Sequence record: PX418922.1
Origin: a phage
Strand: one strand, 5' to 3'
DNA length: 64,000 bases
In this document: positions 31,361 to 63,830 of the stretch, piece by piece
How positions within the stretch are numbered: the stretch's first letter is position 1
Layout of the letters: every line of letters starts with the position of its first letter
The notes under the pieces: generated by a model
Databases searched by the model: none
The model's input: the letters and a program-made list of their open reading frames with translations, nothing else
What the model was told of the DNA's origin: nothing
Position numbers and translations under genes: made by a program

Positions 31361-31382
31361 CACTGAAAAAGAGAGAAAAATC

Positions 31383-31622: not shown

Positions 31623-31631
31623 TAAAAACAG

Positions 31632-31689: not shown

Positions 31690-31712
31690 CCAAAACAAAG
31701 AGATTAAAGATT

Positions 31713-31940: not shown

Positions 31941-31949
31941 AAAAGATTG

Positions 31950-32006
31950 TTGACACCGGAAAGAAAAAGAGTAAACTGTATTACGTAGGGCGGCAATGGT
32001 GCCGCT
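31950..32006 (+). promoter_or_regulatory. island promoter + 5' leader hairpin (P9)
   Basis: TTGACA-N17-TAAACT-GTATTAC-GTAG then GCGGCA-ATGG-TGCCGC. Confidence 0.55.
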
Positions 32007-32030
32007 CACAACAAAAGAGAGATTATTACG

Positions 32031-32243
32031 ATGGCTAATATCCGCACACTGTTAAAAAATGCAAGTCAAGTTTTATTTTCAGATGACGAGTATTTCAATA
32101 AAGACATTACAGGCGTGAAGAATATCAAAGATGTAAAAAGTGTTATGGGTATATATTGCAATGTTAAACGTGTTGGAACGTTCGGTGATAAAGTATTGTA
32201 CCAATCAGGTGATTACAATTTTACTTTGACGATTATTTCATAA
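32031..32243 (+). CDS. island small protein (70 aa)
   Basis: ORF track. Confidence 0.55.
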   Translation: MANIRTLLKNASQVLFSDDEYFNKDITGVKNIKDVKSVMGIYCNVKRVGTFGDKVLYQSGDYNFTLTIIS

Positions 32244-32248
32244 AACGC

Positions 32249-32310
32249 TTGCAATACTGCAAAAATAAAGTAAACTGTATTACATCAAGGCGGCGGAATG
32301 GTCCACCGCC
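32249..32310 (+). promoter_or_regulatory. island promoter + 5' leader hairpin (P10)
   Basis: TTGCAA-N16-TAAACT-GTATTAC-ATCAA then GGCGGCGGA-ATGG-TCCACCGCC. Confidence 0.5.
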
Positions 32311-32334
32311 TAACAAAGAGAAGAGGAAAATATC

Positions 32335-32502
32335 ATGATCACTTTCGCTACCCGTGAAGCCGCTCGCAACGTTGCACGTAAAGTTAACGCCGCCAACCTG
32401 GGCGCTACTTTTAAAGCGCCTGTAAAAGATGAATCAGGAAAATGGATCTTCCCTGGTCTGCGTCACGCTGATAAGCTAGGCACTTTAAGCCTTAAAAAAT
32501 AA
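32335..32502 (+). CDS. island small protein (55 aa)
   Basis: Read manually (MITFATREAARNVARK...); AGAGAAGAGG upstream; shares MITFA N-terminus with the next gene. Confidence 0.4.
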   Translation: MITFATREAARNVARKVNAANLGATFKAPVKDESGKWIFPGLRHADKLGTLSLKK

Positions 32503-32505
32503 TCG

Positions 32506-32540
32506 TTGACTTTTCGTTATAGCGCCCATTATAAGGCGCT
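32506..32540 (+). promoter_or_regulatory. island promoter with variant hairpin (P11)
   Basis: TTGACT then hairpin AGCGCC-CATTATAA-GGCGCT; -10 element unclear. Confidence 0.35.
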
Positions 32541-32576
32541 ATAGAGAAGAGAAACCACTACTAACAAGGAAACATC

Positions 32577-32798
32577 ATGATCACTTTCGCTATTGTCGCC
32601 GTTGTCGCTGGTCAGGTTTACGTAAACGATACATTCACCACAGAAGACAAGGCCGCAGGAGACATAACCGCCGTTTACAATGAGTGCAAGGCAGTAGAAA
32701 GGATGTTAGCGCCTTGTATGTTAATGAGTGAACGCCAGGACGGGATAACAGTGTTTACTAACATTGAAACAGGGTACCAAATGGTAGTAACAAAATAA
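32577..32798 (+). CDS. island small protein (73 aa), hydrophobic N-terminus
   Basis: ORF track. Confidence 0.5.
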   Translation: MITFAIVAVVAGQVYVNDTFTTEDKAAGDITAVYNECKAVERMLAPCMLMSERQDGITVFTNIETGYQMVVTK

Positions 32799-32801
32799 AG
32801 C

Positions 32802-32858
32802 TTGACACGGATTTAATTTTCAGTAAACTGTTACACGTAGGGCGGGAATAGTTCCCGC
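32802..32858 (+). promoter_or_regulatory. island promoter + 5' leader hairpin (P12)
   Basis: TTGACA-N16-TAAACT-GTTACAC-GTAG then GCGGGAA-TAG-TTCCCGC. Confidence 0.55.
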
Positions 32859-32876
32859 TAAAAAGAGAGAAAGACC

Positions 32877-33230
32877 ATGAAAGCACAAAATGCAATTAAA
32901 GAGTACATCCTTGCCGCTATCGATTTTAATGATTACGGTATTACAACCGAAAAAGAGAAGATCGCGGAATTGATGCGCCGTTTTAATTCCGAGTACTGGT
33001 ACCCTGATAATCAATCACGTTTTAATTATAGTATTGTTAAAGCACTTGCATCATGGTTACAAGGCTTGCCATCAGATATTAATATAGCTTTCGAATATTG
33101 GGAAATTGATCGTTTGTTAACATCCTGGGGATACATTAAAGAGAATAGCAGCGATGATAAAATCCAACGAGAAAGGGAAAATTATTGGCTTTATATTGCA
33201 GGCGTGATCCTTGCTTGCTCTTATGAATGA
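32877..33230 (+). CDS. island small protein (117 aa)
   Basis: ORF track. Confidence 0.55.
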   Translation: MKAQNAIKEYILAAIDFNDYGITTEKEKIAELMRRFNSEYWYPDNQSRFNYSIVKALASWLQGLPSDINIAFEYWEIDRLLTSWGYIKENSSDDKIQRERENYWLYIAGVILACSYE

Positions 33231-33236
33231 TAAACC

Positions 33237-33289
33237 TTGACAATTTTACAAAACAGTTTAAATTAATAATATAGCGGCAATGGTGCCGC
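33237..33289 (+). promoter_or_regulatory. island promoter + 5' leader hairpin (P13)
   Basis: TTGACA-N16-TAAATT then GCGGCA-ATGG-TGCCGC. Confidence 0.5.
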
Positions 33290-33309
33290 TCATATAAAGA
33301 GGAAACAAA

Positions 33310-33456
33310 ATGAATACATCTAATCGCGCAGAAAAAATTCAATCTTCCAAGATCCGCAAGGCCTGGAATGAGGAAGTGATCCGCAAAGGCGACAAGCGCA
33401 ATAAAACAAAGCGCGGGAAGAGTGACAAATATAATTGGATGGATTTAGAGGATTAA
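33310..33456 (+). CDS. highly basic micro-protein (48 aa)
   Basis: Read manually (MNTSNRAEKIQSSKIRKAW...KRNKTKRGKSDKYNW); terminator follows. Confidence 0.4.
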   Translation: MNTSNRAEKIQSSKIRKAWNEEVIRKGDKRNKTKRGKSDKYNWMDLED

Positions 33457-33464
33457 CATAACAA

Positions 33465-33490
33465 GGGCGCACCAAGCGCCCTTTCTTTTT
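33465..33490 (+). terminator. intrinsic terminator
   Basis: GGGCGC-ACCAA-GCGCCC then TTTCTTTTT. Confidence 0.65.
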
Positions 33491-33511
33491 ACATGTAGAG
33501 GATAAACAAAA

Positions 33512-33697
33512 ATGACTTTAAACGAGCTTAAAACAGCCTATAACGCAACATTAAAAATAGCCGTGCGTTACCGTGACGAATACGGTTTTATTGCGCAGGG
33601 CGTGATCCTGGGCTTTTCTGACGATGGTTTGATCTATGTTGATGCACATCACAACAAGGTTAAACCGGAAAACGTTATCAGTATAAAATATCTTTAA
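33512..33697 (+). CDS. island small protein (61 aa)
   Basis: ORF track; GAGGATAA upstream. Confidence 0.45.
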   Translation: MTLNELKTAYNATLKIAVRYRDEYGFIAQGVILGFSDDGLIYVDAHHNKVKPENVISIKYL

Positions 33698-33703
33698 AAG
33701 TGG

Positions 33704-33760
33704 TTGACACCATAACCGGACCTGTTAAACTGTATTACATCAGGCGGGGAATAGTTCCCC
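33704..33760 (+). promoter_or_regulatory. island promoter + 5' leader hairpin (P14)
   Basis: TTGACA-N16-TAAACT-GTATTAC-ATCAG then GGGGAA-TAG-TTCCCC. Confidence 0.55.
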
Positions 33761-33783
33761 AACCATACAAAAAGGTAAATATT

Positions 33784-33990
33784 ATGATCACCGCAAAACA
33801 AGAAAAAATCATTATCGACGTTGCAGCCGTTGCCGCTATTGCTATTATTGGATCTTATTATGATACCCGTTTCCCGTCGGCTATGCATGAGATCGCCGCC
33901 GTTGCATCAGTTGGCGTGCTGTTTTACGTTGGTAAACGCTATTTATCACCAATGATTAACAAGCTGACACCGTGGAAAAATAAAGGTTGA
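33784..33990 (+). CDS. island small membrane protein (68 aa)
   Basis: Start moved downstream of hairpin; hydrophobic AAVAAIAIIG segment. Confidence 0.5.
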   Translation: MITAKQEKIIIDVAAVAAIAIIGSYYDTRFPSAMHEIAAVASVGVLFYVGKRYLSPMINKLTPWKNKG

Positions 33991-34041
33991 TCCTGTTTTA
34001 TATTGTGTTATAGTTATCGTGTAGGGCGGCAATGGTGCCGC
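33987..34041 (+). promoter_or_regulatory. island promoter + 5' leader hairpin (P15)
   Basis: TTGATC-N16-TATAGT-TATCGT-GTAG then GCGGCA-ATGG-TGCCGC. Confidence 0.5.
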
Positions 34042-34061
34042 GCCCCTTTGAGGATGCAATC

Positions 34062-34346
34062 ATGAGTAAAGCTAACACCGTGCTAATGTTTTCCCTGATT
34101 AATGATCCCGCTTACTTGTCCAACATGACGCAGGAGGGTAACACATTAACGGCAACATTCACCAATAAGCTTGACCGAGTGATCATCATCTCACTGAAAA
34201 CAGTTAGTAAAGGCTTTTACTCGTTAGCTTATCATTGGATCACTGATACCGATGAGACAAGCCAGGACTATAGCGCCCCTTTCCCTGAATCAATGGCACG
34301 GGAGATCATCGCCGCCGTTGTAAATGATGGTTTGTTTACTGCATAA
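34062..34346 (+). CDS. island small protein (94 aa)
   Basis: Start moved to ATG downstream of hairpin. Confidence 0.5.
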   Translation: MSKANTVLMFSLINDPAYLSNMTQEGNTLTATFTNKLDRVIIISLKTVSKGFYSLAYHWITDTDETSQDYSAPFPESMAREIIAAVVNDGLFTA

Positions 34347-34363
34347 ATAATTTAGAAAAAGGC

Positions 34364-34422
34364 TTGCAATCATTTTGAGATAGTGTATATTTAATTCATA
34401 GGGCGGCGGGAATAGTTCCCAA
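34364..34422 (+). promoter_or_regulatory. island promoter + 5' leader hairpin (P16)
   Basis: TTGCAA-N16-TATATT-TAATTC-ATAG then GGGAA-TAG-TTCCC. Confidence 0.5.
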
Positions 34423-34443
34423 AGCAAACGAGAGGATTACACG

Positions 34444-34563
34444 ATGAGCAAGTACACAGTAGAATACACGGTAGAGAATCCGGCAGTATCCGAAGGTAAA
34501 AAGATGACATTTGCCATCAGTATAATCGCTTTCGTTGTCACTATCTTATCAATCATCTTATAA
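34444..34563 (+). CDS. hydrophobic micro-protein (39 aa)
   Basis: Read manually (MSKYTVEYTVENPAVSEGKKMTFAISIIAFVVTILSIIL). Confidence 0.35.
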   Translation: MSKYTVEYTVENPAVSEGKKMTFAISIIAFVVTILSIIL

Positions 34564-34573
34564 GGTACACACC

Positions 34574-34735
34574 ATGAAAATAACAGACATTATCAAAGAG
34601 ATCGCCCTTGCCGCTGGCGTTGAAGTCGAGGAAGTGATCGCGCTCAATCTTACAGAAAACGATCTGCGCAACTATGAAGCGGAAAGCGTGAAAGCAAGCG
34701 GCGCGGTCCTGGTATATGATCCGGCTAACAAGTAA
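34574..34735 (+). CDS. island small protein (53 aa)
   Basis: Start moved to MKITDII... Confidence 0.4.
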   Translation: MKITDIIKEIALAAGVEVEEVIALNLTENDLRNYEAESVKASGAVLVYDPANK

Positions 34736-34744
34736 GGGGGTAAC

Positions 34745-34855
34745 ATGAATCCGAAAGATATGCAAGCATGGAAAGGGTACGACGATCTAAGCGCCTTGCG
34801 CAATAAGTCAAGCCGTAACTTTAGACGGTTGGAAGCAAAGAAAAAGAAAAAATAG
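34745..34855 (+). CDS. basic micro-protein (36 aa)
   Basis: Read manually (MNPKDMQAWKGYDDLSALRNKSSRNFRRLEAKKKKK); GGGGG upstream. Confidence 0.35.
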   Translation: MNPKDMQAWKGYDDLSALRNKSSRNFRRLEAKKKKK

Positions 34856-34856
34856 T

Positions 34857-34912
34857 TTGACAAGTCCGCCTAGTCTGATAATATGTATCTTGTAGGGCGG
34901 CAATGGTGCCGC
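34857..34912 (+). promoter_or_regulatory. island promoter + 5' leader hairpin (P17)
   Basis: TTGACA-N16-TAATAT-GTATCTT-GTAG then GCGGCA-ATGG-TGCCGC. Confidence 0.55.
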
Positions 34913-34933
34913 TCACAAGAAGAGAGAAAAATC

Positions 34934-35218
34934 ATGAAAATTACAAAAAGCCTAACTAATTATGCAGCACGTCGCGGATTATGTTTAACCGTTGAAAACT
35001 TAGGGAAAGAAGACTTTTTGTGTTTTTGGGAGCTTGAGAATGATTGCGAGTGGATGTTTTCTTATTCTATCTGCGAAGATCAAAACGGTTGTTTGTTAAC
35101 CTGGCGCGGTAATATCTATTTACCGGAAGAAATTAAAGAAGAGTTACCAGGTACGATCATGACAGAGAGACAGCTTAAGGAAGTGATCAATTTTGTAGGG
35201 CAAAACATTAAAAAATAA
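34934..35218 (+). CDS. island small protein (94 aa)
   Basis: Start moved downstream of hairpin; AGAGAGA RBS. Confidence 0.5.
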   Translation: MKITKSLTNYAARRGLCLTVENLGKEDFLCFWELENDCEWMFSYSICEDQNGCLLTWRGNIYLPEEIKEELPGTIMTERQLKEVINFVGQNIKK

Positions 35219-35219
35219 T

Positions 35220-35280
35220 TTGACAGCAGGCAAACAACGTAGTAAAGTTTACCACATAGGGCGGCGGAATGGTCCACCGC
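35220..35280 (+). promoter_or_regulatory. island promoter + 5' leader hairpin (P18)
   Basis: TTGACA-N17-TAAAGT-TTACCAC-ATAG then GGCGGCGGA-ATGG-TCCACCGC. Confidence 0.55.
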
Positions 35281-35303
35281 TCACAACAGAAGAGAAACAA
35301 ATC

Positions 35304-35474
35304 ATGATCCCGACTATGTTTTATGTATCGCGCAAAGGTCACAATATTTTTTGGTCTGAAGATTTAAATGAAGCTATGACGTTTGCCCGTGATCGTGTTG
35401 CTATCGGTGGCGTTAACATCACCGTAACCGATGAAAATGGCATTGAATACTATAACGGCGACGATGAAGAATAA
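35304..35474 (+). CDS. island small protein (56 aa)
   Basis: Start moved to MIPTMFYV... Confidence 0.45.
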   Translation: MIPTMFYVSRKGHNIFWSEDLNEAMTFARDRVAIGGVNITVTDENGIEYYNGDDEE

Positions 35475-35479
35475 TTAAT

Positions 35480-35512
35480 GAGGCGGGGGAGTATTCCCCG
35501 CCGTCAATAAAG
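35480..35512 (+). promoter_or_regulatory. orphan leader-type hairpin with no recognisable promoter
   Basis: GGCGGGGGA-GTA-TTCCCCGCC immediately ahead of the RBS of 35522. Confidence 0.4.
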
Positions 35513-35521
35513 AGGTAAATC

Positions 35522-35791
35522 ATGAAAATATCATTAGACGTTGCAATCAAGGCCATCGAATCCGGTTACACCCTGGTAAAAGATGATAAGGCTAAAACCG
35601 TGCACCACGTTAACAAAGAAACAGGCGAAAGCATGATCACATATAAAGCCGCCTACTTTCTCCAATCAGTAGCAGATCCGCGCGTACAACGCCAGGTTAC
35701 AGCGGCTATTGCTAAAAAATTATGTGCTTTACAGGGCACAAGTTTTAACGAGATCGCCCCGTGTTTTGACTGGTCGAGCTTGAAAAAATAG
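35522..35791 (+). CDS. island small protein (89 aa)
   Basis: ORF track. Confidence 0.5.
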   Translation: MKISLDVAIKAIESGYTLVKDDKAKTVHHVNKETGESMITYKAAYFLQSVADPRVQRQVTAAIAKKLCALQGTSFNEIAPCFDWSSLKK

Positions 35792-35792
35792 T

Positions 35793-35845
35793 TTGACAAC
35801 AATTATAAATCGGGTAGAATGTATTTCGTAGGGCGGGGCAATGGT
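35793..35845 (+). promoter_or_regulatory. island promoter with degenerate hairpin (P19)
   Basis: TTGACA-N16-TAGAAT-GTATTTC-GTAG then GGGCGGGGCAATGGTGCAACGCC. Confidence 0.45.
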
Positions 35846-35872
35846 GCAACGCCTACTAATGAGGGTAAAATC

Positions 35873-35977
35873 ATGTTAGAGAAAATTTTCACGGTTGTAG
35901 TAGTGGGCCTGGTGTTATCGGTTGGAGTGGTTGCAACTATGGCTAACATGATCCTATCTTCCCACGGTATTGGATAA
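35873..35977 (+). CDS. hydrophobic micro-protein (34 aa)
   Basis: Read manually (MLEKIFTVVVVGLVLSVGVVATMANMILSSHGIG). Confidence 0.35.
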   Translation: MLEKIFTVVVVGLVLSVGVVATMANMILSSHGIG

Positions 35978-35987
35978 GGTGAATCAA

Positions 35988-36203
35988 ATGATCACGAATA
36001 AGACAGGTAAAACAGAATTTTTACGCGCCTTGCAGATCGGCAAGCCTGAGATCTGGCATTGCACTAAATCCGCGCATAATGAAATGAAAGATTTTACCGC
36101 TACTTTACAACGTGTTAAAATATCTATCACACAGAAAAAAGCCTTGTTAGTAGTAGAAAACGAGATCCCGCAAACTATTATTATTGTCGAGCGTACAGCA
36201 TGA
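35988..36203 (+). CDS. island small protein (71 aa)
   Basis: Start moved from TTG to the in-frame ATG. Confidence 0.45.
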   Translation: MITNKTGKTEFLRALQIGKPEIWHCTKSAHNEMKDFTATLQRVKISITQKKALLVVENEIPQTIIIVERTA

Positions 36204-36586
36204 AAACAGAAATCATTATTGAAATCATCAACGGTTATAAAGAAGCCTTTATTTTTGCTGAATCAGCAAGGGATCATGAAGGTAATTTTATTGATAACTT
36301 AGACGATTATGATTTTTCTCCTAGCGTGGATCAACGGATCGCCCAGGATGTAACAGCCTTTATTAATGCTAATCTTGCCGCTATCTCTGAGGCAATGAGC
36401 GACGGCGCAACAGCCAACCAGATCGGGAATGATTTACATTTTACCCGTAACGGTCACGGCGTAGGCTTTTGGGATCGCCCTGAAATATACACCACTAACA
36501 CGGCGAACCGCCTAACCAATGCAGCTAAGTTTATGCCGAACGTGTCGGCTTACATTGGTGAAGATAATTTGATTTATATTGAATAA
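36200..36586 (+). CDS. island small protein (128 aa)
   Basis: ORF track; ATGA coupling. Confidence 0.5.
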   Translation: MKTEIIIEIINGYKEAFIFAESARDHEGNFIDNLDDYDFSPSVDQRIAQDVTAFINANLAAISEAMSDGATANQIGNDLHFTRNGHGVGFWDRPEIYTTNTANRLTNAAKFMPNVSAYIGEDNLIYIE

Positions 36587-36592
36587 AAAGTA

Positions 36593-36650
36593 TTGACACC
36601 GATCCCCAATATGGTACTATTTACCACGTAGGCGGGAAATGGTTTCCCGC
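36593..36650 (+). promoter_or_regulatory. island promoter + 5' leader hairpin (P20)
   Basis: TTGACA-N16-TACTAT-TTACCAC-GTAG then GCGGGAA-ATGG-TTTCCCGC. Confidence 0.55.
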
Positions 36651-36674
36651 CAGGTAATCAAAAAGGTAAATACT

Positions 36675-37064
36675 ATGCGCAACCTGGTTTCTGTTTCTAA
36701 CGTTGAAAAATTTCAATCTTTACAGGGTATCGTTAACAACGTAGCGCCTTTTTTAGTCAACGGCTTGATTGCAAAGATGAAAAATAAACATCATGCGGCA
36801 TGGTCTGCTTACTGCTTTGATAATGATGAAAAAGCGGCTGAAATGATGTTAAATATGCTGTTAGACAGTGTAGAATCATCTTTACCGGAAAACATCGCAG
36901 AAGAGATCACCTATCGTTATAATATGGCGATCACTTACCAGGAGGTTGCGCAATTTAATATGATGGACGATGACGAACAACAGGATCAGGAAATGTTTTG
37001 GGAGTATGCTGATCGTCAATCGGCTTTTGATGAAAAATTAGCGATGTATTATAACGAATATTAA
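36675..37064 (+). CDS. island small protein (129 aa)
   Basis: Start moved downstream of hairpin. Confidence 0.5.
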   Translation: MRNLVSVSNVEKFQSLQGIVNNVAPFLVNGLIAKMKNKHHAAWSAYCFDNDEKAAEMMLNMLLDSVESSLPENIAEEITYRYNMAITYQEVAQFNMMDDDEQQDQEMFWEYADRQSAFDEKLAMYYNEY

Positions 37065-37080
37065 TACACGGTAAAAGAAA

Positions 37081-37105
37081 GGGGCGCACTAAGCGCCCTT
37101 TTTTG
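37081..37105 (+). terminator. intrinsic terminator
   Basis: GGGCGC-ACTAA-GCGCCC then TTTTTTG. Confidence 0.65.
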
Positions 37106-37448
37106 TATTCTTTTTTCACGATGGAAACAACACGTAAAGAATAGGCGTAAAGGTGGCGTAAAACCATCTAAAACCGACTGTAACCGCTTAAACAAGGTAG
37201 GAATGATTAATCACCTTGCCAGGATGAAAAAGCCGTTATAAAGCTATCTAGAGCGTTTAAAGCACATAGGAAATAATTTGCTTTTTATCTTGCCTTTTAC
37301 CCTGCTTTTGATTATTATTATGGAACGGGCGGCACCTGGAGACAGGGGAAGATAATCACCGGAAGATCCCGCTATATATTGATAGCTAATACCTATTAAA
37401 CAACAAAACATCAAAGGAATAAACTATCAAATCTTTACAATTCTACCT

Positions 37449-37495
37449 ATTGACACCGGATCGCCCTTATACTAAGATGTATCACGTAGGGCAAA
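37449..37495 (+). promoter_or_regulatory. island promoter without clear hairpin (P21)
   Basis: TTGACA-N17-TAAGAT-GTATCAC-GTAGGGC; hairpin degenerate. Confidence 0.45.
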
Positions 37496-37524
37496 TGATT
37501 TTAAACGGTAAACGAGGAATCACC

Positions 37525-37908
37525 ATGAGCAATATCATCAACCTGGCAGCGACTGTAAACGGTAAAGACTTTAACGGCGCTGTAGACCGTGATCCTATGT
37601 GGTACTTGTCAGTGTTTAAAGGCGATCTGGTTGAAGTTAGAACAACCGAAGGGTATAGCGATGATTATAAATGCGAGATTCATTTACATAATTGGTACAC
37701 GGGTAAAACTTATGCGCTGAATCACGCGTTTATCGGAAAAATCGAATATCGTGAGATGATCGACGAAGAAACGGGGCAAGATTTTAGCGAAAACGTTTAT
37801 ATTCGTTCCGAGACATTAGCCGAACGTTTGATCGAGAAAATGAAAGCAAAAAATAAAATTAATTTATCTCATTGGATTGATATAACAAACGATCCAGCTT
37901 ATCAGTAA
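37525..37908 (+). CDS. island small protein (127 aa)
   Basis: Start moved to MSNIINLAAT... Confidence 0.5.
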   Translation: MSNIINLAATVNGKDFNGAVDRDPMWYLSVFKGDLVEVRTTEGYSDDYKCEIHLHNWYTGKTYALNHAFIGKIEYREMIDEETGQDFSENVYIRSETLAERLIEKMKAKNKINLSHWIDITNDPAYQ

Positions 37909-37924
37909 ATAACATTTCATACCA

Positions 37925-37950
37925 GGGCGCACAAAGCGCCCTTTCTTTTT
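37925..37950 (+). terminator. intrinsic terminator closing the island
   Basis: GGGCGC-ACAAA-GCGCCC then TTTCTTTTT. Confidence 0.65.
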
Positions 37951-39529
37951 GCCCGAACAATGTTGATAGATTCCGCCTATGGAAAACCGACACAGAACAA
38001 AACTGAATAAATAGCGGTATCAAGCTAATCAACCATTAAATGAATAACCATACCTCCCAGGGTAACAGGCTGTTAGAGAGCCATTTAAAGCGGTTAAAAT
38101 CGATCAACAACCAACAACAAACCATCAAAAACACCCTTTTACCTCCTTTCTAGTGCAATGATAACCATTATCATCTATCCATGTTTATCTATACAATATA
38201 AGTGCATAATTATAATGTTGATAATAGTTCGCAACAACTAACCAACAAACAACATAAAACAATAAGCAAACTAATCATAATCAAAGGAATAATAGCAAGA
38301 TGATTGATAACAACAAACAATCAAACCATGATGAATACTAAGCAAGATAACGATAACACGACAAAACAACCAACTAACGAACAATAACAAACGAAACCAT
38401 TAAAATAATAACTATTGCCATAATAGTGACTAAATGAAATCATTACAAAACGAATCATTCACAGAGTCATCATTAGCACGCTATGCCGGACACATAGCGA
38501 GCTAATAATAAGCCAACTACACCCCAACAATCATAACCATCGGTGATGGTTATTTCTTGTTACTGCGTAGCTTGCAATAATTGCAAGCGTAATGACGCTT
38601 ACACTTATTGCGCTGGCTTATTATTAGCATTATATGTAATTACCAAGATCATAACATTAGCGCAATAACAATAATCATTGTGGTAATTACGTAAGGAAAC
38701 AATTAGCATGGCAATAATTATGGGGCAATGGGAGGATGATTATCATCATTCCGATACATTGCACACTATGCACATAATAGAATAAAAAGCAATAATTTTG
38801 GGGGCGAAATGTTACCGCCACAGGCGGGAATGTTGAGCACTAAGAAAAGAGATAAACCTTAATCATGGGGGCGTAAATATCCGCAGGATTGCCAACGGCG
38901 ATCCGGTAGGATGTTGAGCATCTTCTCTTAAACGTAAATAAAATCAGAAAATTCTTGATTTATTTTAGTTTTTATGTTAATAAACGTTTAAATAATAATC
39001 ATTCTCATATAAATAATAGTCTGCTTGTCATGAGCGGGATTAGTTGACAATGTTCCGTCATATGATGAAGTTGCCAACCTATTGATAAATAAGTGTTTGT
39101 GTGATTTATAATCAAGTGGCCCACCTTGTCGCTACGTTGGCATAAGCCTTGCATAAGTCATTGAATACGAATGATAATTATTCTCATTCGCATGATATTT
39201 GGGAATTGTCGCTGCGTGGACCTGACGGCCCGAAAATTCGCGTTAAGCACTTCTTACGTATGCGCCATGATTTTTGCCATATGATATTGATTCTATTAGA
39301 TATTCTTGCCATGATTGCCATGAAACAGGGTGTCCCGAAATAATCTTTCCCCGTAGATATTTTGGGTTACTTTTTATACAAGAGTGGGGTGTCAAAAATA
39401 ATCGGTATATATGGGATAATTGATAGGAATCCCCTATGATAATTCGATTGTAATTCCCTGAGATTGATCGTATGATGTTGGTGATTGATGATTGCCATGA
39501 AAGATGGCTAACGATGAGAGGAGATTATC
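37951..39529. other. 1.6-kb non-coding, repeat-rich region with strand-skewed A+C content
   Basis: No ORF of 60 aa or more; CAACAA/ACAAAC low-complexity runs; palindromes; Fur-box-like sites at 38991-39010 and 39169-39189. Confidence 0.5.
38570..38588. repeat. 19-bp palindrome
   Basis: GCTTGCAAT-A-ATTGCAAGC, 9-bp arms. Confidence 0.6.
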
Positions 39530-56004: not shown

Positions 56005-56040
56005 TAGAAAAGGCACCCACTTGGGTGCCTTTGTTTTATT
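56005..56040. terminator. bidirectional intrinsic terminator at the convergent junction
   Basis: AGGCACCCA-CTT-GGGTGCCT flanked by an A-run and TTGTTTTATT. Confidence 0.6.
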
Positions 56041-56351: not shown

Positions 56352-57152
56352 TTATTTGTTTAAGTGGTCTTCGACCATTTTAATAAAACCTTCATTGCTG
56401 AAGGCTGTTGCAGCTTTTTCTCGGTAAACAAAAACTCCACGATCTTCATAGAGAAGTGTTTCTTCGTAATTAACTTCAGGGTTAACTACAACCATTTTTG
56501 TCCCGATGTTAAGAGCAGGAAAAAGCTCCCAGTTAAAATTGATAACTTGATTAGAGCAACCCACTACAATCACCATATCTTGAGCCGTCAAGCCGTCTAA
56601 GATGTGGTACATATCGTTATACAATGGGGCAGTCTCCCCAAAGAACACTACATTAGGCTTCACATACTTGTAATCATCTACATCGATAGCAGCATAGCCA
56701 ACATCTTTGATGATTCTATTGTCTACGATCACTTCAGGCAGGAAGCCGTGAACATGTAGAACATCTTCATGAACAACACCCGCTTGTTCCAGAAGATCAT
56801 CTACGTTTGTCGTGATGTTGATAACACGATCACAGCCGTACTCTTGAAACCATTCCGCGATCTGGTAATGCGCAGCGTTAGGAGTTACACTATCCATCTC
56901 TACGCGACGTTTATTGTAGAAGTCATGAGTTTTACGGTAGAGGTTGTATCCCTCTGCATCTAATCCGCCAACAGCCCCAGGAACACACTGTTCTTGTTGG
57001 TATCCAGCACGGAAGTTGAAAATGTCACACACTTCAGAAAGGTCGTATTCATCCCACAAAGCTTTCCCACTATCTGTATCAGTGCGGAAAGTACGTACAC
57101 CGCTATCGGCGCTTAAGCCAGCGCCGCTGATCACTATTAATCGTCTTGGCAT
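56352..57152 (-). CDS. Sir2-family NAD-dependent protein (sirtuin-like)
   Basis: NAD-binding motif GAGLSADSGVRTFR and VLHVHG (catalytic His region); no obvious zinc-ribbon Cys pairs. Confidence 0.6.
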   Translation of the reverse strand: MPRRLIVISGAGLSADSGVRTFRTDTDSGKALWDEYDLSEVCDIFNFRAGYQQEQCVPGAVGGLDAEGYNLYRKTHDFYNKRRVEMDSVTPNAAHYQIAEWFQEYGCDRVINITTNVDDLLEQAGVVHEDVLHVHGFLPEVIVDNRIIKDVGYAAIDVDDYKYVKPNVVFFGETAPLYNDMYHILDGLTAQDMVIVVGCSNQVINFNWELFPALNIGTKMVVVNPEVNYEETLLYEDRGVFVYREKAATAFSNEGFIKMVEDHLNK

Positions 57153-57649: not shown

Positions 57650-57680
57650 AAAAGAAAAGCCCCCTGAAACAGGAGGCTTT
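57650..57680 (-). terminator. putative intrinsic terminator
   Basis: Minus-strand AGCCTCCTG-TTTC-AGGGGGCT (one G-U) then TTTTCTTTT. Confidence 0.4.
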
Positions 57681-57695
57681 GTTCAGATTCTGACA

Positions 57696-58346
57696 CTATA
57701 CCAGACTTTGTAGGTATTTGTCAAGGGCTTCTTGATCACCTTGACAAACATAGCAACGGAAGTCTTGAGCCGAAGGTTGTTTATTCTCATCCCAGTCCCA
57801 CATTATATTACCTTTGTAACGTGAACCAGGGAAGTCGAAAAATGCTGTATGGGTGATGTGGTGTGGACCGCCCCAAACCTCTGTAAAGGTGAACTGCGGA
57901 TACGCTACCTTCACCGCCTCCATAAACCAAGCTTTACGAATCAAAGCATTGTTGATAAAATGCGCGTGACGTTCCATTTCTTCCCAGTTCTTCCACACGC
58001 TTTTCTCGTCAAGGGAAAATACAAGATCCTCTTCAATATACAAGCCATCTTCGCATTCGTCAAAATCTGCCTCAAGACCTCCTACAGGTTCGTCGAGTCT
58101 AACACCATCAAAAGCAGAATATACCCACCAACCATCTTCCAGTAAGGCTTTGATAGGGACGAAGCCTTTATCAGCATATTGATCGAATTGTTTCACACGG
58201 TGGCTTGTGCAGTCTTCAAACTCACATTCTAAACGATATGCACCTTTTCGACGAGCCTCAAGACCGTGTGTACTGAAAATAACAACACTTCCTTCACCAT
58301 CATTACGATCTACTTGATAAGCAACTACTGGTTTTGAATTTGACAT
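57696..58346 (-). CDS. hypothetical protein (216 aa)
   Basis: ORF track. Confidence 0.5.
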   Translation of the reverse strand: MSNSKPVVAYQVDRNDGEGSVVIFSTHGLEARRKGAYRLECEFEDCTSHRVKQFDQYADKGFVPIKALLEDGWWVYSAFDGVRLDEPVGGLEADFDECEDGLYIEEDLVFSLDEKSVWKNWEEMERHAHFINNALIRKAWFMEAVKVAYPQFTFTEVWGGPHHITHTAFFDFPGSRYKGNIMWDWDENKQPSAQDFRCYVCQGDQEALDKYLQSLV

Positions 58347-59029
58347 TATTTCTCCTTATCTAGAAGATTGTTAGACAAAAACACGGCACGAGCAAAACCA
58401 CGTGCGGTTAGGGATCTAAGTTGTTTTGTTTTTGCACTAGCTCCACCTAAGCTTTTCCAACCCCAGAAGCAGCCTATATGATCTACTGGTTTCTTCACTG
58501 GTTGAACAAAACCATTGCCGTGCCAAATACAAGTTTTCTTTGTATACCCATCACGGGTAGGCATTTTAGGATGAAAGCTTCCTTCCTCTTCAAACAAATA
58601 CCCACCATATTCATAAGGATTAAAGTAAAAATCGGGTTTACGCCATAAGGTTGAAAGTTTACCTACTGGGTTCTCAATCATCCAAGGAACATTATATTTG
58701 TTACCCAAAGCTTCCACTACACGAATATTAGCTAAAGCTTCATCTAATTCCTCTGTGCTACGTTCGTGTTTGCTACCACTACCTGCTAACATAGTACAAG
58801 GTGGAAATCCAAAAATAATATCGGGTTTAGGTATCCCATGATCTTCAGGGTTGAATGTAGAATCTATCCAGGCATTCACATAGGTTATGTTTGGGTGCTC
58901 CATCCTAACCTCGTATTTACCGTGATCCCCTTCATCAGCGTTTACACAAAAACACTTGTGACCTGCTTCGGCATAACGTAACACCATGATCCCAGATCCG
59001 TCAAACATAGACAAAACTGTTTTACTCAT
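58346..59029 (-). CDS. DNA (cytosine-5)-methyltransferase-like protein
   Basis: Motif I SMFDGSG, motif IV FGFPPCT (Pro-Cys), motif VI IENPVG; start moved to ATG after GGAGGGG. Confidence 0.5.
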   Translation of the reverse strand: MSKTVLSMFDGSGIMVLRYAEAGHKCFCVNADEGDHGKYEVRMEHPNITYVNAWIDSTFNPEDHGIPKPDIIFGFPPCTMLAGSGSKHERSTEELDEALANIRVVEALGNKYNVPWMIENPVGKLSTLWRKPDFYFNPYEYGGYLFEEEGSFHPKMPTRDGYTKKTCIWHGNGFVQPVKKPVDHIGCFWGWKSLGGASAKTKQLRSLTARGFARAVFLSNNLLDKEK

Positions 59030-59435
59030 TACCCCTCCATTCAAGACAAGCCATAACTTTACGCCAATCACTTTCTGTAAGAAAAATCTCGTTTGCTTTC
59101 TTCCACAAATCTAAATCGTGAAGGGTTGGAATACGATATGTTAGTTCACAGAATCTATGCTCTTCTTCTGTAATATAACCAAAATGCAGAGCCACATCGT
59201 GAAACCAACACCAACCATGCATCTCTCGAACAACATGGTCATGCTGAGACATTGTTTTATGCCGTAAACCTAACCAACAAGGAACAGATACTTTAGTAGT
59301 CTTTAATCTGTGATCAACAGTATTAGAGTATTCAATAATAGCTGTCAGTTTCAATCGTGCTTTTTCTAAATCCTCATGGGTCACTTTGAAATAACTTTCT
59401 GAAAGATATCCACACATATTAATAACCTCCTTCAA
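59022..59435 (-). CDS. hypothetical protein (137 aa)
   Basis: ORF track. Confidence 0.45.
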   Translation of the reverse strand: MKEVINMCGYLSESYFKVTHEDLEKARLKLTAIIEYSNTVDHRLKTTKVSVPCWLGLRHKTMSQHDHVVREMHGWCWFHDVALHFGYITEEEHRFCELTYRIPTLHDLDLWKKANEIFLTESDWRKVMACLEWRGNE

Positions 59436-60360
59436 AAGGCTTTACTACATGTTGATTAGCTTTAAAACGTTCAACATAGTCGTTTTCACCCATGTTTTCA
59501 TATAGTTTAGTAACAACATAAAAGTTTTCCCAAGCATATTCCCTAAACCAACCACTAGTGATGGAGGTGCAGACTTTTGATAAAGCCATTATAAAACTTT
59601 GCTTAGGGGTTGGACCTCCGATCTCTTCACCGAAAGGAATTTGTGAACGTTCCAAAGCCAAAACACACGCTTCTTCATAAACACCTAACAGGCGCACATG
59701 TTTTGGTTGAGCAAAAAACTTTTCTTTGCTGGTCATAACTTCACTTCCATCTTTCATATAAGATTTATATGCTGGAGCATCCATTAACGCGATTGCTTCA
59801 TGGATAGAATCATGATCATAAACATACGGAACCTCGTCACCTTTAAAGAACTCTTTACTTTTTACGTTTAAGTTCGGATGAGAGTAAGTGTATGTTTCTT
59901 TCTCACGCAACTCATAAATACTCTTAAGATTTTCTGGGATCTTTGCGCCCAGTGACCGCATGAAATGAATATCTTTCATAGTTTTAAAGAAGTGAGGACT
60001 ATCCTTTTTAAAACGATGACTCATTTTAAGAAGGTAGAGCACATCTAAAGGAGCAACAACATGTCCAGCGTAAGTTCGACGAACATCATCAGAATCTTCA
60101 CAATAACTAATCAAAGCTTCTGTGCTATCTCCTTGAGAAGCAATATCGTATTCCAAATGTGCACCAGCTATCATTTTGACATGGCCTTTGTTCCCTTTAC
60201 GTTCTACAAGTTCAACAAACTCGTCTTGAGAGAACATTTTTGATAATTCTTCCCACTCTTGTTCTGTACACAGGTAATCTAAATCTACACAAGGGCGATA
60301 CAAGTCTTTTCCCATGTCCATAGCATGAATTTGTAATGCACGGCTACCAATTAACACCAT
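59419..60360 (-). CDS. nucleotidyltransferase-fold protein (tentative)
   Basis: N-terminal LIGSRALQ...DLDYL resembles the GS...DxD signature of the Pol-beta-like NTase fold. Confidence 0.35.
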   Translation of the reverse strand: MVLIGSRALQIHAMDMGKDLYRPCVDLDYLCTEQEWEELSKMFSQDEFVELVERKGNKGHVKMIAGAHLEYDIASQGDSTEALISYCEDSDDVRRTYAGHVVAPLDVLYLLKMSHRFKKDSPHFFKTMKDIHFMRSLGAKIPENLKSIYELREKETYTYSHPNLNVKSKEFFKGDEVPYVYDHDSIHEAIALMDAPAYKSYMKDGSEVMTSKEKFFAQPKHVRLLGVYEEACVLALERSQIPFGEEIGGPTPKQSFIMALSKVCTSITSGWFREYAWENFYVVTKLYENMGENDYVERFKANQHVVKPFEGGY

Positions 60361-60420
60361 AATATTTCTCCTCTATTGGTTGATAGGTTAAGTTTATCAA
60401 GCTTCCAGATTCCTGTCAAT

Positions 60421-60445
60421 AAAAAACCCGCCGAAGCGGGTTATT
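60421..60445 (-). terminator. intrinsic terminator
   Basis: Minus-strand CCCGC-TTCG-GCGGG then TTTTTT. Confidence 0.6.
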
Positions 60446-60450: not shown

Positions 60451-60723
60451 CTAACACATTGAGGAAGAAGAGATCCAAACACCTCTTGTGGTTAAACCAT
60501 TTTCATCCAACTCTACACCATAATCTTCACAAATGAAATCAATATAGTGATCTGCGGCTGGCGTTCCTGTAGGGTAATAAGTTTCTCCGTTACCGTAGTC
60601 ACCTATCCAAGCTTGTTCCTGAAACTGTTCACAAAGTTCTTCAATTTCCTTACGAAACTTTCCTTGTGCTTGTTCCATCTCTTTAACTTTCTTTTTTATC
60701 AGCAGTTCGCCTTCAGACTCCAC
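60451..60723 (-). CDS. hypothetical protein (90 aa)
   Basis: ORF track. Confidence 0.45.
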   Translation of the reverse strand: MESEGELLIKKKVKEMEQAQGKFRKEIEELCEQFQEQAWIGDYGNGETYYPTGTPAADHYIDFICEDYGVELDENGLTTRGVWISSSSMC

Positions 60724-60732: not shown

Positions 60733-60951
60733 TTAACAGCTACTACTGTGCCAAACGCCTTGAGAATTAACAACGAAACCATCATCACCTTCACCATAAC
60801 AAGAAGAGGATTGCCAATCTTCAAAACAGATTGCGTCATCTTCTAAACTAAGACCAAAACCAGCATCTTCAGCTTCTTTTGTAAGTTCGTCCACCAAAGC
60901 CATAATAGCTTGGGCTTTTTCAGTTAATTCTTCAACATTACGATAACTCAT
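60733..60951 (-). CDS. hypothetical acidic protein
   Basis: Start moved to ATG after AGAGGAG (TAATG overlap with upstream stop). Confidence 0.45.
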   Translation of the reverse strand: MSYRNVEELTEKAQAIMALVDELTKEAEDAGFGLSLEDDAICFEDWQSSSCYGEGDDGFVVNSQGVWHSSSC

Positions 60952-61265
60952 TAGTATTTCTCCTCTGGTTGGAAAACGGAACGACAAGCCCACATACTAG
61001 CTTCTTTTAAATGTTTAATAGCACAACGGATTTGATCAATACGTTCGTATGCAAGATCTAATTCTTTTTCTGTGCCGTCAAAAGACCCATGATATGCTTC
61101 ACAATACTCTTCCTCTAAAGCTTTGAAGATTAAACCTAAACGCTCTTCTGCATCTTTAATAGCGTTAACCTTGCCAATCTTATCGTCAGTATGCGCCTTA
61201 TAACCTTTGATATCTTCGATTCCCACTTTACCTCCTATTAACAACTTAAAGAAGATGGATGCCAA
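60951..61265 (-). CDS. hypothetical protein (104 aa)
   Basis: ORF track. Confidence 0.45.
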   Translation of the reverse strand: MASIFFKLLIGGKVGIEDIKGYKAHTDDKIGKVNAIKDAEERLGLIFKALEEEYCEAYHGSFDGTEKELDLAYERIDQIRCAIKHLKEASMWACRSVFQPEEKY

Positions 61266-61435
61266 TTTGTTCCAGTATTCTCATTTTCATCTTCTGGATC
61301 ATAATAGCCACCCATCCCATATTCAGGGGAGAAACGGAAACCTTTACCAGTCTCATCTGCTAACTGCTCTGCTTCCGCTAAAGCCTCATAAGCTGCTTTT
61401 ACGGCTTCTTCTACTGTTTTAAACTTGGTCGTCAT
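61238..61435 (-). CDS. hypothetical protein (65 aa)
   Basis: ORF track. Confidence 0.4.
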   Translation of the reverse strand: MTTKFKTVEEAVKAAYEALAEAEQLADETGKGFRFSPEYGMGGYYDPEDENENTGTNWHPSSLSC

Positions 61436-61709: not shown

Positions 61710-62200
61710 AAAACCTCCTCAATCTTGTAGTTTGACTCCATCTCCAATACATTTCCACGAACGTCTCTCCGAAGAAAGGCATAAGCTTTATTAGGTATTG
61801 TAGACTCATATTTAACCATATCTGGCACAGCAAAAGATACTACTACTCCTGCTGGGCTTCTGTCAAGAGCCTTATTAATATTTCTAAGGATATCGTTAGC
61901 CAAGATTTCTGCCAATTCTCCAAGAACGGTTTCGGTTATATCTTTATATCCCATTAAGTATTTGTTGATATCTTTCATCTCTGTATTGTTCAGAGTATAA
62001 TCCAAAGGATAGAAATTCAAAGCGGAGTCACTTTTATGTGTCCACATGAAATGCACCCGATCCGAGCAGAATCGTAACCCTCTTTGAAGAATATCTTCTA
62101 CAACAGGCAGAATTTCTTTTGTCACATCATTAACCATGTTGTAATCTAAGATTTCTGCCAAGTTTGTTCTTTGTTCACCACGTTTACGTTTAGGAATCAC
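61688..62200 (-). CDS. hypothetical protein (170 aa)
   Basis: ORF track. Confidence 0.5.
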   Translation of the reverse strand: MIPKRKRGEQRTNLAEILDYNMVNDVTKEILPVVEDILQRGLRFCSDRVHFMWTHKSDSALNFYPLDYTLNNTEMKDINKYLMGYKDITETVLGELAEILANDILRNINKALDRSPAGVVVSFAVPDMVKYESTIPNKAYAFLRRDVRGNVLEMESNYKIEEVLWQSSDQ

Positions 62201-62771
62201 TTGTTATTGCCCTCATTACCAAAGGTCGTAGAAAATCGTAAATCTCTTGTTTTGTTTTCCCACGAATGTTTAAACAAGGAACATTATTGGCTTTAGCTAT
62301 CTTCCAAGCCGTAGCTGTTCCACCTTTTGCATCTCCATGTTTATCAGTATTAGCACAAGCCAACAAGAAACATGATGGAGCAGGATTCTCCAAATCTCTA
62401 CCTAACACTTGATGCACATTACGTTGGTGCAATTTTCTAGCACCCTGCTTAAGCTTTTCATAGGCTGGGTGAACATCTTTGATCCATTGCACAGAGATAG
62501 CATAGTTCATTGTATCTGGTTTTGCAAGAACAATAACATCCCCTGGAATCTGATTACCTTTGAAATTTTCCCAAGGAACATAAATCTCCTTGTTAGTAGG
62601 ATTTTCAGACTCTTGGACACCTGTTTCAAAAGCAGAATCACTACCCTCTGCCTTCCCAGACCTTAATTTAAACCCAAGGTTTGAAAGCCATTTCCCTATG
62701 CCTACCATCAAAGCCCACTCTTCTTCGGATATGTCTCTACTTCCAACTCCCGTATAGAACAGTTCTGCCAT
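62190..62771 (-). CDS. DprA/Smf-like Rossmann-fold protein (SLOG-type)
   Basis: YTGVGSRDIS ... SGKAEGSDSAF ... GGTATAW pattern; start moved to ATG after GAGGTG. Confidence 0.45.
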   Translation of the reverse strand: MAELFYTGVGSRDISEEEWALMVGIGKWLSNLGFKLRSGKAEGSDSAFETGVQESENPTNKEIYVPWENFKGNQIPGDVIVLAKPDTMNYAISVQWIKDVHPAYEKLKQGARKLHQRNVHQVLGRDLENPAPSCFLLACANTDKHGDAKGGTATAWKIAKANNVPCLNIRGKTKQEIYDFLRPLVMRAITSDS

Positions 62772-62778
62772 AATCACC

Positions 62779-63087
62779 TCAACAAGTAATTTCAAAAGGT
62801 GTATACGGTTCCGTATTTCTCATGATCCAAGGACTGCTAGGATTGCTCGGATCATAAGGACCAAAAGGTTTTATGGTCGGTTGTGTTTCTTTCTTCTGAA
62901 TCTCTTCAAAAATACGACGAAGTTCAGAATATTCTTGATCCACCATAAGATTCGGTGCATCTGATTCTACAGCTTGCAGGTTATCTTCCTTAAGAACAAT
63001 CTCACGAACAAGATTAACATCTTCTGTTTCTAAGATAACTTCTTTACGGATATTACCTACACTTTGAATAATTGTAATCTTATACAT
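62779..63087 (-). CDS. hypothetical protein (102 aa)
   Basis: ORF track. Confidence 0.45.
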   Translation of the reverse strand: MYKITIIQSVGNIRKEVILETEDVNLVREIVLKEDNLQAVESDAPNLMVDQEYSELRRIFEEIQKKETQPTIKPFGPYDPSNPSSPWIMRNTEPYTPFEITC

Positions 63088-63830
63088 TAATCCTCCTCAA
63101 GAGTTGAATAAAATTGAAGACCACCGTCCATATCGAAATAAGCAAATGTTAAGTTATTATTGAACACAGATCCAGTATCCATATAAACACGATTCGCATT
63201 GATAATAGGTGTTTTTACATAAGAGTGTCCATGAAACACATAATCCACACCCATCACAACAGGAAGTTTCATTCCCTCTTTAGCACAGTCTACCATATCT
63301 CTGTCCCACATAAGTGCTTCAGCAAAACGGTTTTCCTGTGTTTTTGTCATCTTCGAAATGTATTCTGGAATATCTGTTACAGGGAGATATTCCAAAGAAG
63401 ATGGATACCCACCATGAATAAACGCAAGTTTCATGCCTCTGTAGTTAACAATGAGAACAACAGGTAAATCTTCTGTCATCATTGTTAAGGCTGTAGCTCC
63501 TTCTTCACCACATTCTTCAAAGACCGTATATCCTCCATTTTGATACCAACACTCGTAGTAGCTACGATCTCCTTCCAGCATACCTTTAATCATCATGTCT
63601 TCATGATTGCCACGAATAGCGTAGCGATTGTGTTTACGAGTAAATTCTAAAACACAACGAAAGTTTTGCTTTCCACGGTCAGTAAGATCTCCTAGAGATA
63701 CAACCACATCTGTATCTCGGATACCTAACTTTGCCTTTCCTTTTTCATACAAATTATAACAACCGTGTAGATCTCCAATTATAAAAAGATCTTGATCGCT
63801 TTTAACAGTAATTTCTCTGTGTATGATCAC
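63087..63830 (-). CDS. Ser/Thr protein phosphatase (calcineurin-like metallophosphatase)
   Basis: Motifs GDLHG, GDLTDRG, GNHE; GTG start overlapping upstream stop (GTGA). Confidence 0.7.
   Translation of the reverse strand: MIIHREITVKSDQDLFIIGDLHGCYNLYEKGKAKLGIRDTDVVVSLGDLTDRGKQNFRCVLEFTRKHNRYAIRGNHEDMMIKGMLEGDRSYYECWYQNGGYTVFEECGEEGATALTMMTEDLPVVLIVNYRGMKLAFIHGGYPSSLEYLPVTDIPEYISKMTKTQENRFAEALMWDRDMVDCAKEGMKLPVVMGVDYVFHGHSYVKTPIINANRVYMDTGSVFNNNLTFAYFDMDGGLQFYSTLEED

Follow-up and report, generated by a model that had tools for sequence, protein, structure and literature searches.

The window analysed here, a stretch of 64,000 nucleotides from sequence record PX418922.1, belongs to a phAPEC8-like Phapecoctavirus (Stephanstirmvirinae), a myophage of Escherichia coli. 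Its minus strand carries a gene for a 227-amino acid (aa) protein with the motifs of C5-cytosine methyltransferases (MTases; positions 58346 to 59029) and, two genes upstream, a gene for a 313-aa protein with features of nucleotidyltransferases (NTases; 59419 to 60360). We consider, with a probability of about 0.8, that the former encodes a DNA C5-methyltransferase of the compact Dcm family of phages, and that the latter is an accessory NTase gene that is independent of it. Between positions 56000 and 61000 the window shows 95-99% identity with Escherichia phages SKA64, UP17, TSP7_1 and phAPEC8. Both open reading frames (ORFs) are annotated coding sequences in phAPEC8, where the 227-aa protein corresponds to gp194, which is named 'DNA methyltransferase' in RefSeq and 'Dcm' or 'putative site-specific DNA methylase' elsewhere.

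The 227-aa protein and the compact Dcm family

The assignment of the 227-aa protein is based on its comparison with an experimentally studied enzyme. The gene bas06_0055 of phage KarlJaspers (MZ501090) is exactly 711 bp long and is annotated as 'Dcm-like C5 cytosine methyltransferase'. Its product is 50% identical to the 227-aa protein over the full length (E = 5e-72, residues 5-220 against 6-234), and C82, E128, K175 and K176, found in the KarlJaspers protein at the residue numbers published for phage K42, correspond to C78, E119, K164 and K165 here. K42 (Drexlerviridae) is 95.4% identical to KarlJaspers/Bas06, a phage of the BASEL collection, and the mutants of K42 that escape the retron Ec86 lie in its 711-bp dcm gene (bioRxiv 10.1101/2023.08.16.553469). 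In the same report, expression of K42 Dcm was toxic only alongside Ec86, mass spectrometry coupled to liquid chromatography (LC-MS) detected 5-methylcytosine (5mC) on the multicopy single-stranded DNA (msDNA) with wild-type Dcm and not with C82A/E128A/K175A/K176A, and the Ec86 defence was lost when CCTGG was mutated in the msDNA stem (bioRxiv 10.1101/2023.08.16.553469). This work has also appeared in peer-reviewed form (Wang et al., Cell Rep 2024;43:114857; citation from PMC12640716). Because the identity extends over the full length and the four functional residues are conserved, the sequence places the 227-aa protein in this compact family, for which DNA C5-methylation has been shown in the K42 homologue. 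Formation of 5mC and triggering of the retron were both established by others with that homologue, and are carried over to the present enzyme by analogy.

The family is large and uniform in size. We found 838 homologues in a 90%-clustered protein database, the best 120 of which are all 210-267 aa long and mostly at least 60% identical, and 1,876 representatives at 50% clustering, the best 150 of which are mostly 200-260 aa long. Members were present in 1,488 of 50,697 phage records, including Drexlerviridae, Dhillonvirus, rV5-like and CR3-like phages. The small size of the protein had been singled out in an earlier note on this DNA, made from the letters alone; since the family is annotated in RefSeq, is spread over this many phage records and has been studied experimentally, the MTase is of a known enzyme type and its compactness itself is not novel. 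The same note had proposed an orphan enzyme, and this was borne out. There is no nuclease partner in the operon, and the chromosomal homologues of Salmonella and Bdellovibrio lie in prophage-like regions where no partner restriction enzyme can be recognised (two contexts), indicating that the 227-aa enzyme is an orphan MTase.

Motifs and predicted fold of the methyltransferase

Motifs were read from the translation, and their conservation was measured on an alignment of 39 homologues. The putative AdoMet (S-adenosylmethionine)-binding loop of motif I, FDGSG (residues 9-13; 58991 to 59005, on the minus strand as are all segments of this gene), has G11, S12 and G13 invariant. Motif IV, FPPCT (residues 75-79; 58793 to 58807), contains the presumed catalytic Cys78, with P76, C78 and T79 invariant, and motif VI, ENPV (residues 119-122; 58664 to 58675), contains Glu119, with E119, N120 and P121 invariant. 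The three motifs align with FSGAGG, GPPCQ and ENV of M.HaeIII, respectively, and the earlier description of an ORF with FDGSG, Pro-Cys and ENP/V holds across the homologues. At the position of motif VIII, the pair Lys164-Lys165 (58535 to 58540) stands in place of the RxR arginines and is conserved (K164 invariant, K165 at least 90% conserved), and it aligns with K175/K176 of K42/KarlJaspers Dcm. The C-terminal segment RSLTARGFARAV (58382 to 58417), which falls on the last helix and in which R205, S206, T208, G211 and A215 are invariant, resembles a fused motif IX/X, the label of motif IX or X being given by eye only.

The AlphaFold2 model of the protein has the catalytic-domain fold of C5-MTases. 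DNMT3B gave the highest structural score (14.0, with 189 residues aligned), followed by the prophage MTase 3g7u and the carboxymethyltransferase CmoX (12.4 each), DNMT3A (12.0), M.HhaI (11.6), M.MpeI (11.2) and M.HaeIII (10.8). Nine of the ten best matches are DNA-modifying enzymes of the C5-MTase family, and the matches of this family align 50-60 residues more than generic Rossmann-fold MTases do. The protein is far shorter than typical enzymes, as the earlier note had stated; the solved stand-alone C5-MTase chains that it matched have 291-388 residues. Where a target-recognition domain (TRD) would be expected, the model has just a loop and a single short helix, and its terminal helix is formed by residues 210-219. 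The stretch from K165 to T201 measures only about 35 residues and leaves no separate TRD between motifs VIII and IX, which is closer to DNMT3 than to the bacterial enzymes. From this short distance between motif VIII and the C-terminal helix, the model is read as a C5-cytosine DNA methyltransferase fold with a minimal, DNMT3-like recognition loop.

Profile searches, which along with structure searches had been suggested earlier as a check, gave an end-to-end match to PHROG 757 ('DNA methyltransferase'; E = 1.2e-84, residues 1-225). The type II/DruM C5-MTase models of PADLOC matched the N-terminal half (E = 1e-4), and PDB sequences, searched with the protein as well as with the profile of its family, returned only M.HaeIII, a marginal match spanning motifs I, IV and VI. 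Together with the sub-threshold match to PF00145 described below, these hits of the N-terminal half are weak but agree in their placement, which speaks in favor of a C5-MTase. When the family alignment was compared by hhalign with an M.HhaI sequence, which was checked on the residue numbers C81, E119, R165 and N304, the alignment covered motifs I-IV only, that is the N-terminal half, with a probability of 6.9%.

Several of our observations count against a C5-MTase. The Pfam model PF00145 scored 11.6 bits versus a threshold of 22, and for residues 4-92 only; the NCBIfam scan of the 227-aa protein gave no match; the acidic residue of motif II is not conserved across the homologues; and the GN(A/S)V of motif X is not recognisable, although the conserved C-terminal helix with TPRGFARAV may stand in for it. 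One homologue (P0060) has a precomputed PF00145 match, and the family appears from its sequences to be a divergent branch that the PF00145 model misses.

The earlier note had also allowed for a methyltransferase that does not act on DNA, and an RNA or tRNA m5C (5-methylcytosine) methyltransferase of the Dnmt2-like type, or an enzyme acting on a nucleotide, would be such a case. In view of the DNA-modifying enzymes that dominate the structural matches and of the 50%-identical K42/KarlJaspers Dcm, which methylates DNA at C5 in vivo, we regard this as very improbable. The presence of CmoX among the top structural matches brings in another enzyme, a CmoX-like carboxymethyltransferase that would use carboxy-S-adenosylmethionine (Cx-SAM) of the host to produce 5-carboxymethylcytosine. 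E. coli supplies Cx-SAM, and the selectivity of CmoX hinges on an Arg in place of Asn304 of HhaI, while the MTase family has a conserved Arg210 before the last helix. The hhalign alignment, which reached motifs I-IV only, does not extend to Arg210 and HhaI Asn304, and DNMT3A, which is a methyltransferase, also has Arg at the same motif X position. Moreover, 5mC is what the KarlJaspers/K42 Dcm produces, although TPRGFARAV is present there as well. Pfam and PHROGs scans of 16 genes, from 56.0 to 63.8 kb, revealed nothing like CmoA or CmoY, and the two parts of the phAPEC8 record that were inspected have no such annotation. Carboxymethylation of this kind was therefore rejected, being extremely unlikely without CmoA/CmoY in these stretches and with a homologue that makes 5mC.

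Proposed reaction, target site and role

In C5-MTases, a Cys adds to C6 of the flipped-out cytosine, a Glu protonates N3, and the methyl group is passed to C5. On this canonical chemistry, the residues conserved in the compact Dcm suggest the following roles: AdoMet binding by the FDGSG loop, attack on C6 of the flipped-out base by Cys78 of FPPC, N3 protonation by Glu119 of ENPV and, for Lys164 and Lys165, replacement of the arginines of motif VIII; the methyl group would be transferred to C5 of the cytosine. The enzyme would be made early, from the sigma-70-type promoter of a four-gene operon described below, and would methylate the DNA of the phage (and of the host) at a short site, most likely Dcm-like CCWGG.

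A Dcm-like site (C5mCWGG) is probable, by analogy with the K42 data and because the window shows no avoidance of CCWGG (89 sites, where shuffled sequence gave an expectation of 66 +/- 8) and relatives of the phage were isolated on K-12 MG1655. This host is mcrBC+, so that methylation of a purine-C site would be self-defeating. As to their distribution, about 45 of the 89 CCWGG sites are clustered at 28000-38000, where the G+C content is 0.40-0.44 compared with about 0.38 elsewhere. Against CCWGG it must be said that the specificity of the K42 enzyme comes from msDNA mutagenesis in a dcm+ host and not from a methylome, and that K42/KarlJaspers Dcm and the 227-aa protein are unlike in the loop where contact with DNA is most likely. 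Our literature search found no methylome or methylation data for Phapecoctavirus, and this gap weighs on the same side; the search gave the same result for rV5 and Drexlerviridae. A paper on Erwinia jumbo phages describes GATC and CCWGG methylation; this is not tied to the compact Dcm family and was not used.

Methylation of CCWGG would protect the phage against EcoRII-type restriction, and would avoid the purine-5mC sites that are cut by McrBC. We infer a plausible role of the MTase in countering restriction by EcoRII-type enzymes; it must be narrow, because Vequintavirinae and their relatives were 'exceptionally susceptible' to the restriction systems tested in the BASEL work. As a side effect, the phage would become detectable by the retron Ec86/Eco1, a sensor of methylation on its own msDNA. 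Sensitivity to Ec86/Eco1 is therefore the predicted cost of the MTase, by analogy with K42, and no published Retron-Eco1 sensitivity data for Vequintavirinae were found in the literature.

The two enzyme genes are neighbors in one lineage

The MTase and NTase genes belong to a block of four minus-strand genes, whose stops and starts overlap or abut and whose counterparts in the RefSeq record of phAPEC8 are gp192 to gp195. The 313-aa ORF is followed by a gene for a 131-aa protein (59022 to 59417), the stop of which overlaps the MTase start, then by the MTase gene, and finally by a gene for a 216-aa protein (57696 to 58346), the start of which overlaps the MTase stop. The MTase starts with ATG at 59029, preceded by a GGAGG Shine-Dalgarno sequence, in agreement with the start of the homologues. 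The 131-aa protein matched PHROG 16551 (E = 3e-73) with no Pfam or NCBIfam match, and the 216-aa protein matched PHROG 8514 (E = 7e-82) with no Pfam match.

A consensus scan found a sigma-70-like promoter before the NTase gene (60391 to 60419, minus strand), with TTGACA, a 17-nt spacer, TAAACT and an extended TG, which matches at 10 of 12 positions and is a consensus match only. A hairpin scan found a GC-rich hairpin followed by a T-run (60425 to 60442), terminator-like and apparently closing the upstream transcription unit, and phAPEC8 is annotated with a terminator at the equivalent place. It also found a strong terminator-like hairpin of 11 base pairs after the 216-aa gene (57656 to 57680, minus strand), at the end of the four-gene unit. 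From the promoter-like site, the flanking hairpins and the overlapping or abutting genes, the NTase, 131-aa, MTase and 216-aa genes form one local operon.

Such a layout, in which four genes overlap stop to start, with a promoter-like site and terminator-like hairpins at the borders, would suit a functional module, and so would the synteny of the block in contigs of 140-155 kb (rV5, phAPEC8 and related ones). The module might serve two-step DNA hypermodification, for example, or counter-defence by methylation plus nucleotidylation. A link between the two enzymes was also implied in the earlier note. We examined it in 80 IMG/VR loci with an NTase homologue and, separately, 80 loci with an MTase homologue, using a radius of 10 kb. 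An MTase was present in 9 of the 80 NTase loci, eight of which are syntenic with the window (rV5/phAPEC8-type order), the ninth being a 46-kb contig; conversely, an NTase was present in 4 of the 80 MTase loci. Outside the rV5/phAPEC8 lineage the two genes are thus rarely neighbors. The MTase copies of Drexlerviridae, Dhillonvirus and prophages are without the NTase, and the sampled NTase loci of T4-like and jumbo phages are without the MTase within the radius. As for the other two members of the block, a homologue of the 131-aa protein was present in only 1 of the 80 NTase loci, and the 216-aa gene and the MTase were found together only in rV5/phAPEC8-like contigs. None of the annotated genes around KarlJaspers dcm has the size or annotation of the NTase, and plasmid-expressed K42 Dcm alone gives 5mC. 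The module was rejected on these two independent samples, whose counts largely refute it, and we hold it to be highly improbable. The rare co-occurrence across phages indicates no functional coupling; their closeness is synteny within one lineage, and the NTase gene is an independent accessory gene.

The 313-aa nucleotidyltransferase-fold protein

The 313-aa protein begins with MVLIGS and has the Pol-beta-type NTase signature G5-S6...D26-L-D28 (60277 to 60348, minus strand), read from the translation. All four residues are invariant in 40 homologues, so that the GS...DxD pattern pointed out earlier in this protein was genuine. Glu70 (60151 to 60153, minus strand), which lies on the predicted strand of residues 68-73, is also invariant and is a candidate third metal-binding carboxylate, with a presumed catalytic role. 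The AlphaFold2 model (predicted local distance difference test score, pLDDT, 91.7) has a bi-lobed NTase fold like that of MenT1, MenT3 and MenT4. MenT1 was the top match by Foldseek (E = 7e-4, probability 1.00), and MenT1, TglT/MenT3 and MenT4 were the best structural matches by two methods. On the basis of these matches and the invariant G5, S6, D26, D28 and E70, the model indicates a nucleotidyltransferase of the Pol-beta superfamily with a core closest to the DUF1814 MenT/AbiEii toxins, in accordance with the NTase suggested in the earlier note. We say only that the predicted structure looks like a MenT-type enzyme, and do not file the protein as a member of that family.

In sequence, the protein matched the Pfam families DUF7277 (E = 7.6e-14) and DUF7275 (E = 1.6e-75), and also PHROG 2141. 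There are 2,211 homologues in the protein database, and the family is present in 735 phage records, including many of T4-like, Acinetobacter, Aeromonas and jumbo phages. A profile search of PDB sequences with the family gave no match, and no paper mentioning DUF7275 or DUF7277 was found in the literature. A pattern K112...R116...K126...D130 resembles motif IV, by eye only. The RlaP NTases, known from a comparative paper on jumbo phages, were considered and rejected, because the protein matched no Pfam family beyond DUF7277/DUF7275.

The likeness to MenT toxins is weakened by the following. Antibiotic nucleotidyltransferases score nearly equal to the toxins; the C-terminal helices, some 120-150 residues making up about half of the protein, are without a structural match; and at E <= 1 Pfam gave only DUF7277/DUF7275, with no match to DUF1814/AbiEii. 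MenT/AbiEii toxins add nucleotides to the acceptor ends of tRNAs (PMC7450476), and our best guess, which we infer from this resemblance, is that the 313-aa NTase would add nucleotides to the 3' end of an RNA, possibly tRNA. Alternatively, it would nucleotidylate a small molecule, as do ANT(2'') or LnuA, or a protein. The scores of ANT(2''), LnuA and a fungal NTase-like protein are near those of the MenT toxins, the large conserved helical C-terminal domain with its many invariant His, Asp, Arg and Tyr residues may form a pocket for a small ligand, and small acidic proteins are encoded just upstream of the NTase in two phage lineages. The best matches by two methods are nevertheless enzymes that act on tRNA, namely MenT1, TglT/MenT3 and MenT4, and we regard such a small-molecule or protein substrate as less likely.

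The small acidic proteins match the C-terminal part of phrog_899 and are found directly upstream of the NTase in 28 of the 80 NTase loci, in rV5/phAPEC8-like and roughly 170-kb T4-like contigs. The window encodes three paralogues (60451-60723, 60733-60993 and 61238-61435, all on the minus strand) of 65-90 aa with isoelectric points of 4.1-4.3. Their C-termini are GVWISSSSMC, GVWHSSSC and TNWHPSSLSC, the second also having an internal WQSSSC. All database homologues of the small W-x-SS-x-C protein are 'hypothetical'. A doubtful extension of the tRNA reading is that the MenT-like phage NTase extends or repairs tRNA 3' ends during infection and is controlled by these upstream proteins. If this were true, the NTase would serve in host translation shut-off or in protection of tRNA from tRNA-targeting defences, a toxin-antitoxin-type enzyme pair would have been repurposed by lytic phages, and the compact Dcm would stay an unrelated neighbor. 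No tRNA genes were found in the window.

Neighboring genes and other features

A calcineurin-type, NinI-like phosphatase is encoded at 63087-63830 (minus strand; Pfam Metallophos, E = 3e-13). In contigs as large as jumbo-phage genomes, mostly of 350-370 kb, its homologue follows downstream of the NTase at a distance of 0.3-1.7 kb (loci L016, L020, L021, L024, L025, L028, L031, L034, L036, L050 and L071), and the phosphatase and NTase may represent a second conserved neighborhood of the NTase. An 89-aa protein (60951-61220, minus strand) matched the Acb2/Tad1 hairpin domain PF24729 (E = 1.1e-16, 61 bits, the cut-off being 27), and from this sequence match it is likely a cyclic-nucleotide sponge (anti-CBASS/Thoeris). 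It is only 'hypothetical' in phAPEC8, and T4-like contigs carry homologues at a distance of 5-7 kb from the NTase. The operon is flanked by genes for a Sir2-family protein (56352-57152, minus strand; Pfam E = 6e-20, PHROG 2162) and a DprA-like/SLOG-type protein (62190-62795, minus strand; PHROG 768). Taken together, the Sir2-family, DprA-like/SLOG-type and Acb2-like genes suggest that the minus-strand block is an accessory or counter-defence region.

The best sigma-70 match of the region is at 57695-57724 (minus strand), with TTGACA, an 18-nt spacer, TATAGT and an extended TG (11 of 12 positions). It sits in the 3' end of the 216-aa gene, directly before the hairpin at 57680-57656, giving an odd order of promoter then terminator ahead of the next gene (start 57649). 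The sign of the GC skew changes from negative to positive at about 21000-22000 and back to negative at about 56000. At the latter flip the genes also pass from the plus to the minus strand, and a bidirectional hairpin resembling a terminator is present (56009-56032).

Significance

For the MTase there is little new. The analysis assigns the 'DNA methyltransferase' genes of Phapecoctavirus and rV5 to an experimentally studied family of compact Dcm enzymes, and from this it is predicted that therapeutically used Phapecoctavirus/rV5 phages carry 5mC and are sensed by the retron Ec86/Eco1, which is native to E. coli B/BL21. The latter prediction bears on host-range work and on the choice of production strain. 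A modest structural question is how a recognition loop of about 35 residues would read a 5-bp site. The DUF7277/DUF7275 NTase is the more useful lead, and the only part worth follow-up, being well conserved in hundreds of phages with a predicted fold that is otherwise that of tRNA-inactivating toxins.

Comparison with known systems

The known enzyme that the 227-aa protein was found to share its features with is the K42/KarlJaspers Dcm. Both are of the same size class (236 and 227 aa), both have the FDGSG, FPPCT, ENPVGK, KKT and LRSLTPRGFARAV motifs, and both are orphan genes in early regions of phages. They differ in a loop of about 20 residues between the last strand and the C-terminal helices, and for this reason site specificity may differ. 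The phages also differ, a 150-kb myovirus here versus a 51-kb siphovirus for the K42/KarlJaspers Dcm.

Compared with the phage protein, the canonical type II enzymes M.HhaI, M.HaeIII and E. coli Dcm (PF00145) are about 100 residues longer and have a separate TRD/small domain. The phage protein has lysines for the arginines of motif VIII, ENP for ENV and PCT for PCQ, has no recognisable GN(A/S)V, and remains below the threshold in Pfam. The catalytic domains of DNMT3A and DNMT3B, in contrast, are only 15-18% identical to the phage protein, and DNMT3 is an oligomer assisted by DNMT3L, with regulatory domains, that acts on CpG.

The MenT/AbiEii enzymes (DUF1814) differ from the 313-aa protein in that the latter has no DUF1814 sequence match, the identity being 9-14%, and has the additional helical C-terminal region. 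Whereas MenT/AbiEii belong to chromosomal toxin-antitoxin loci, the 313-aa protein is encoded by lytic phages.

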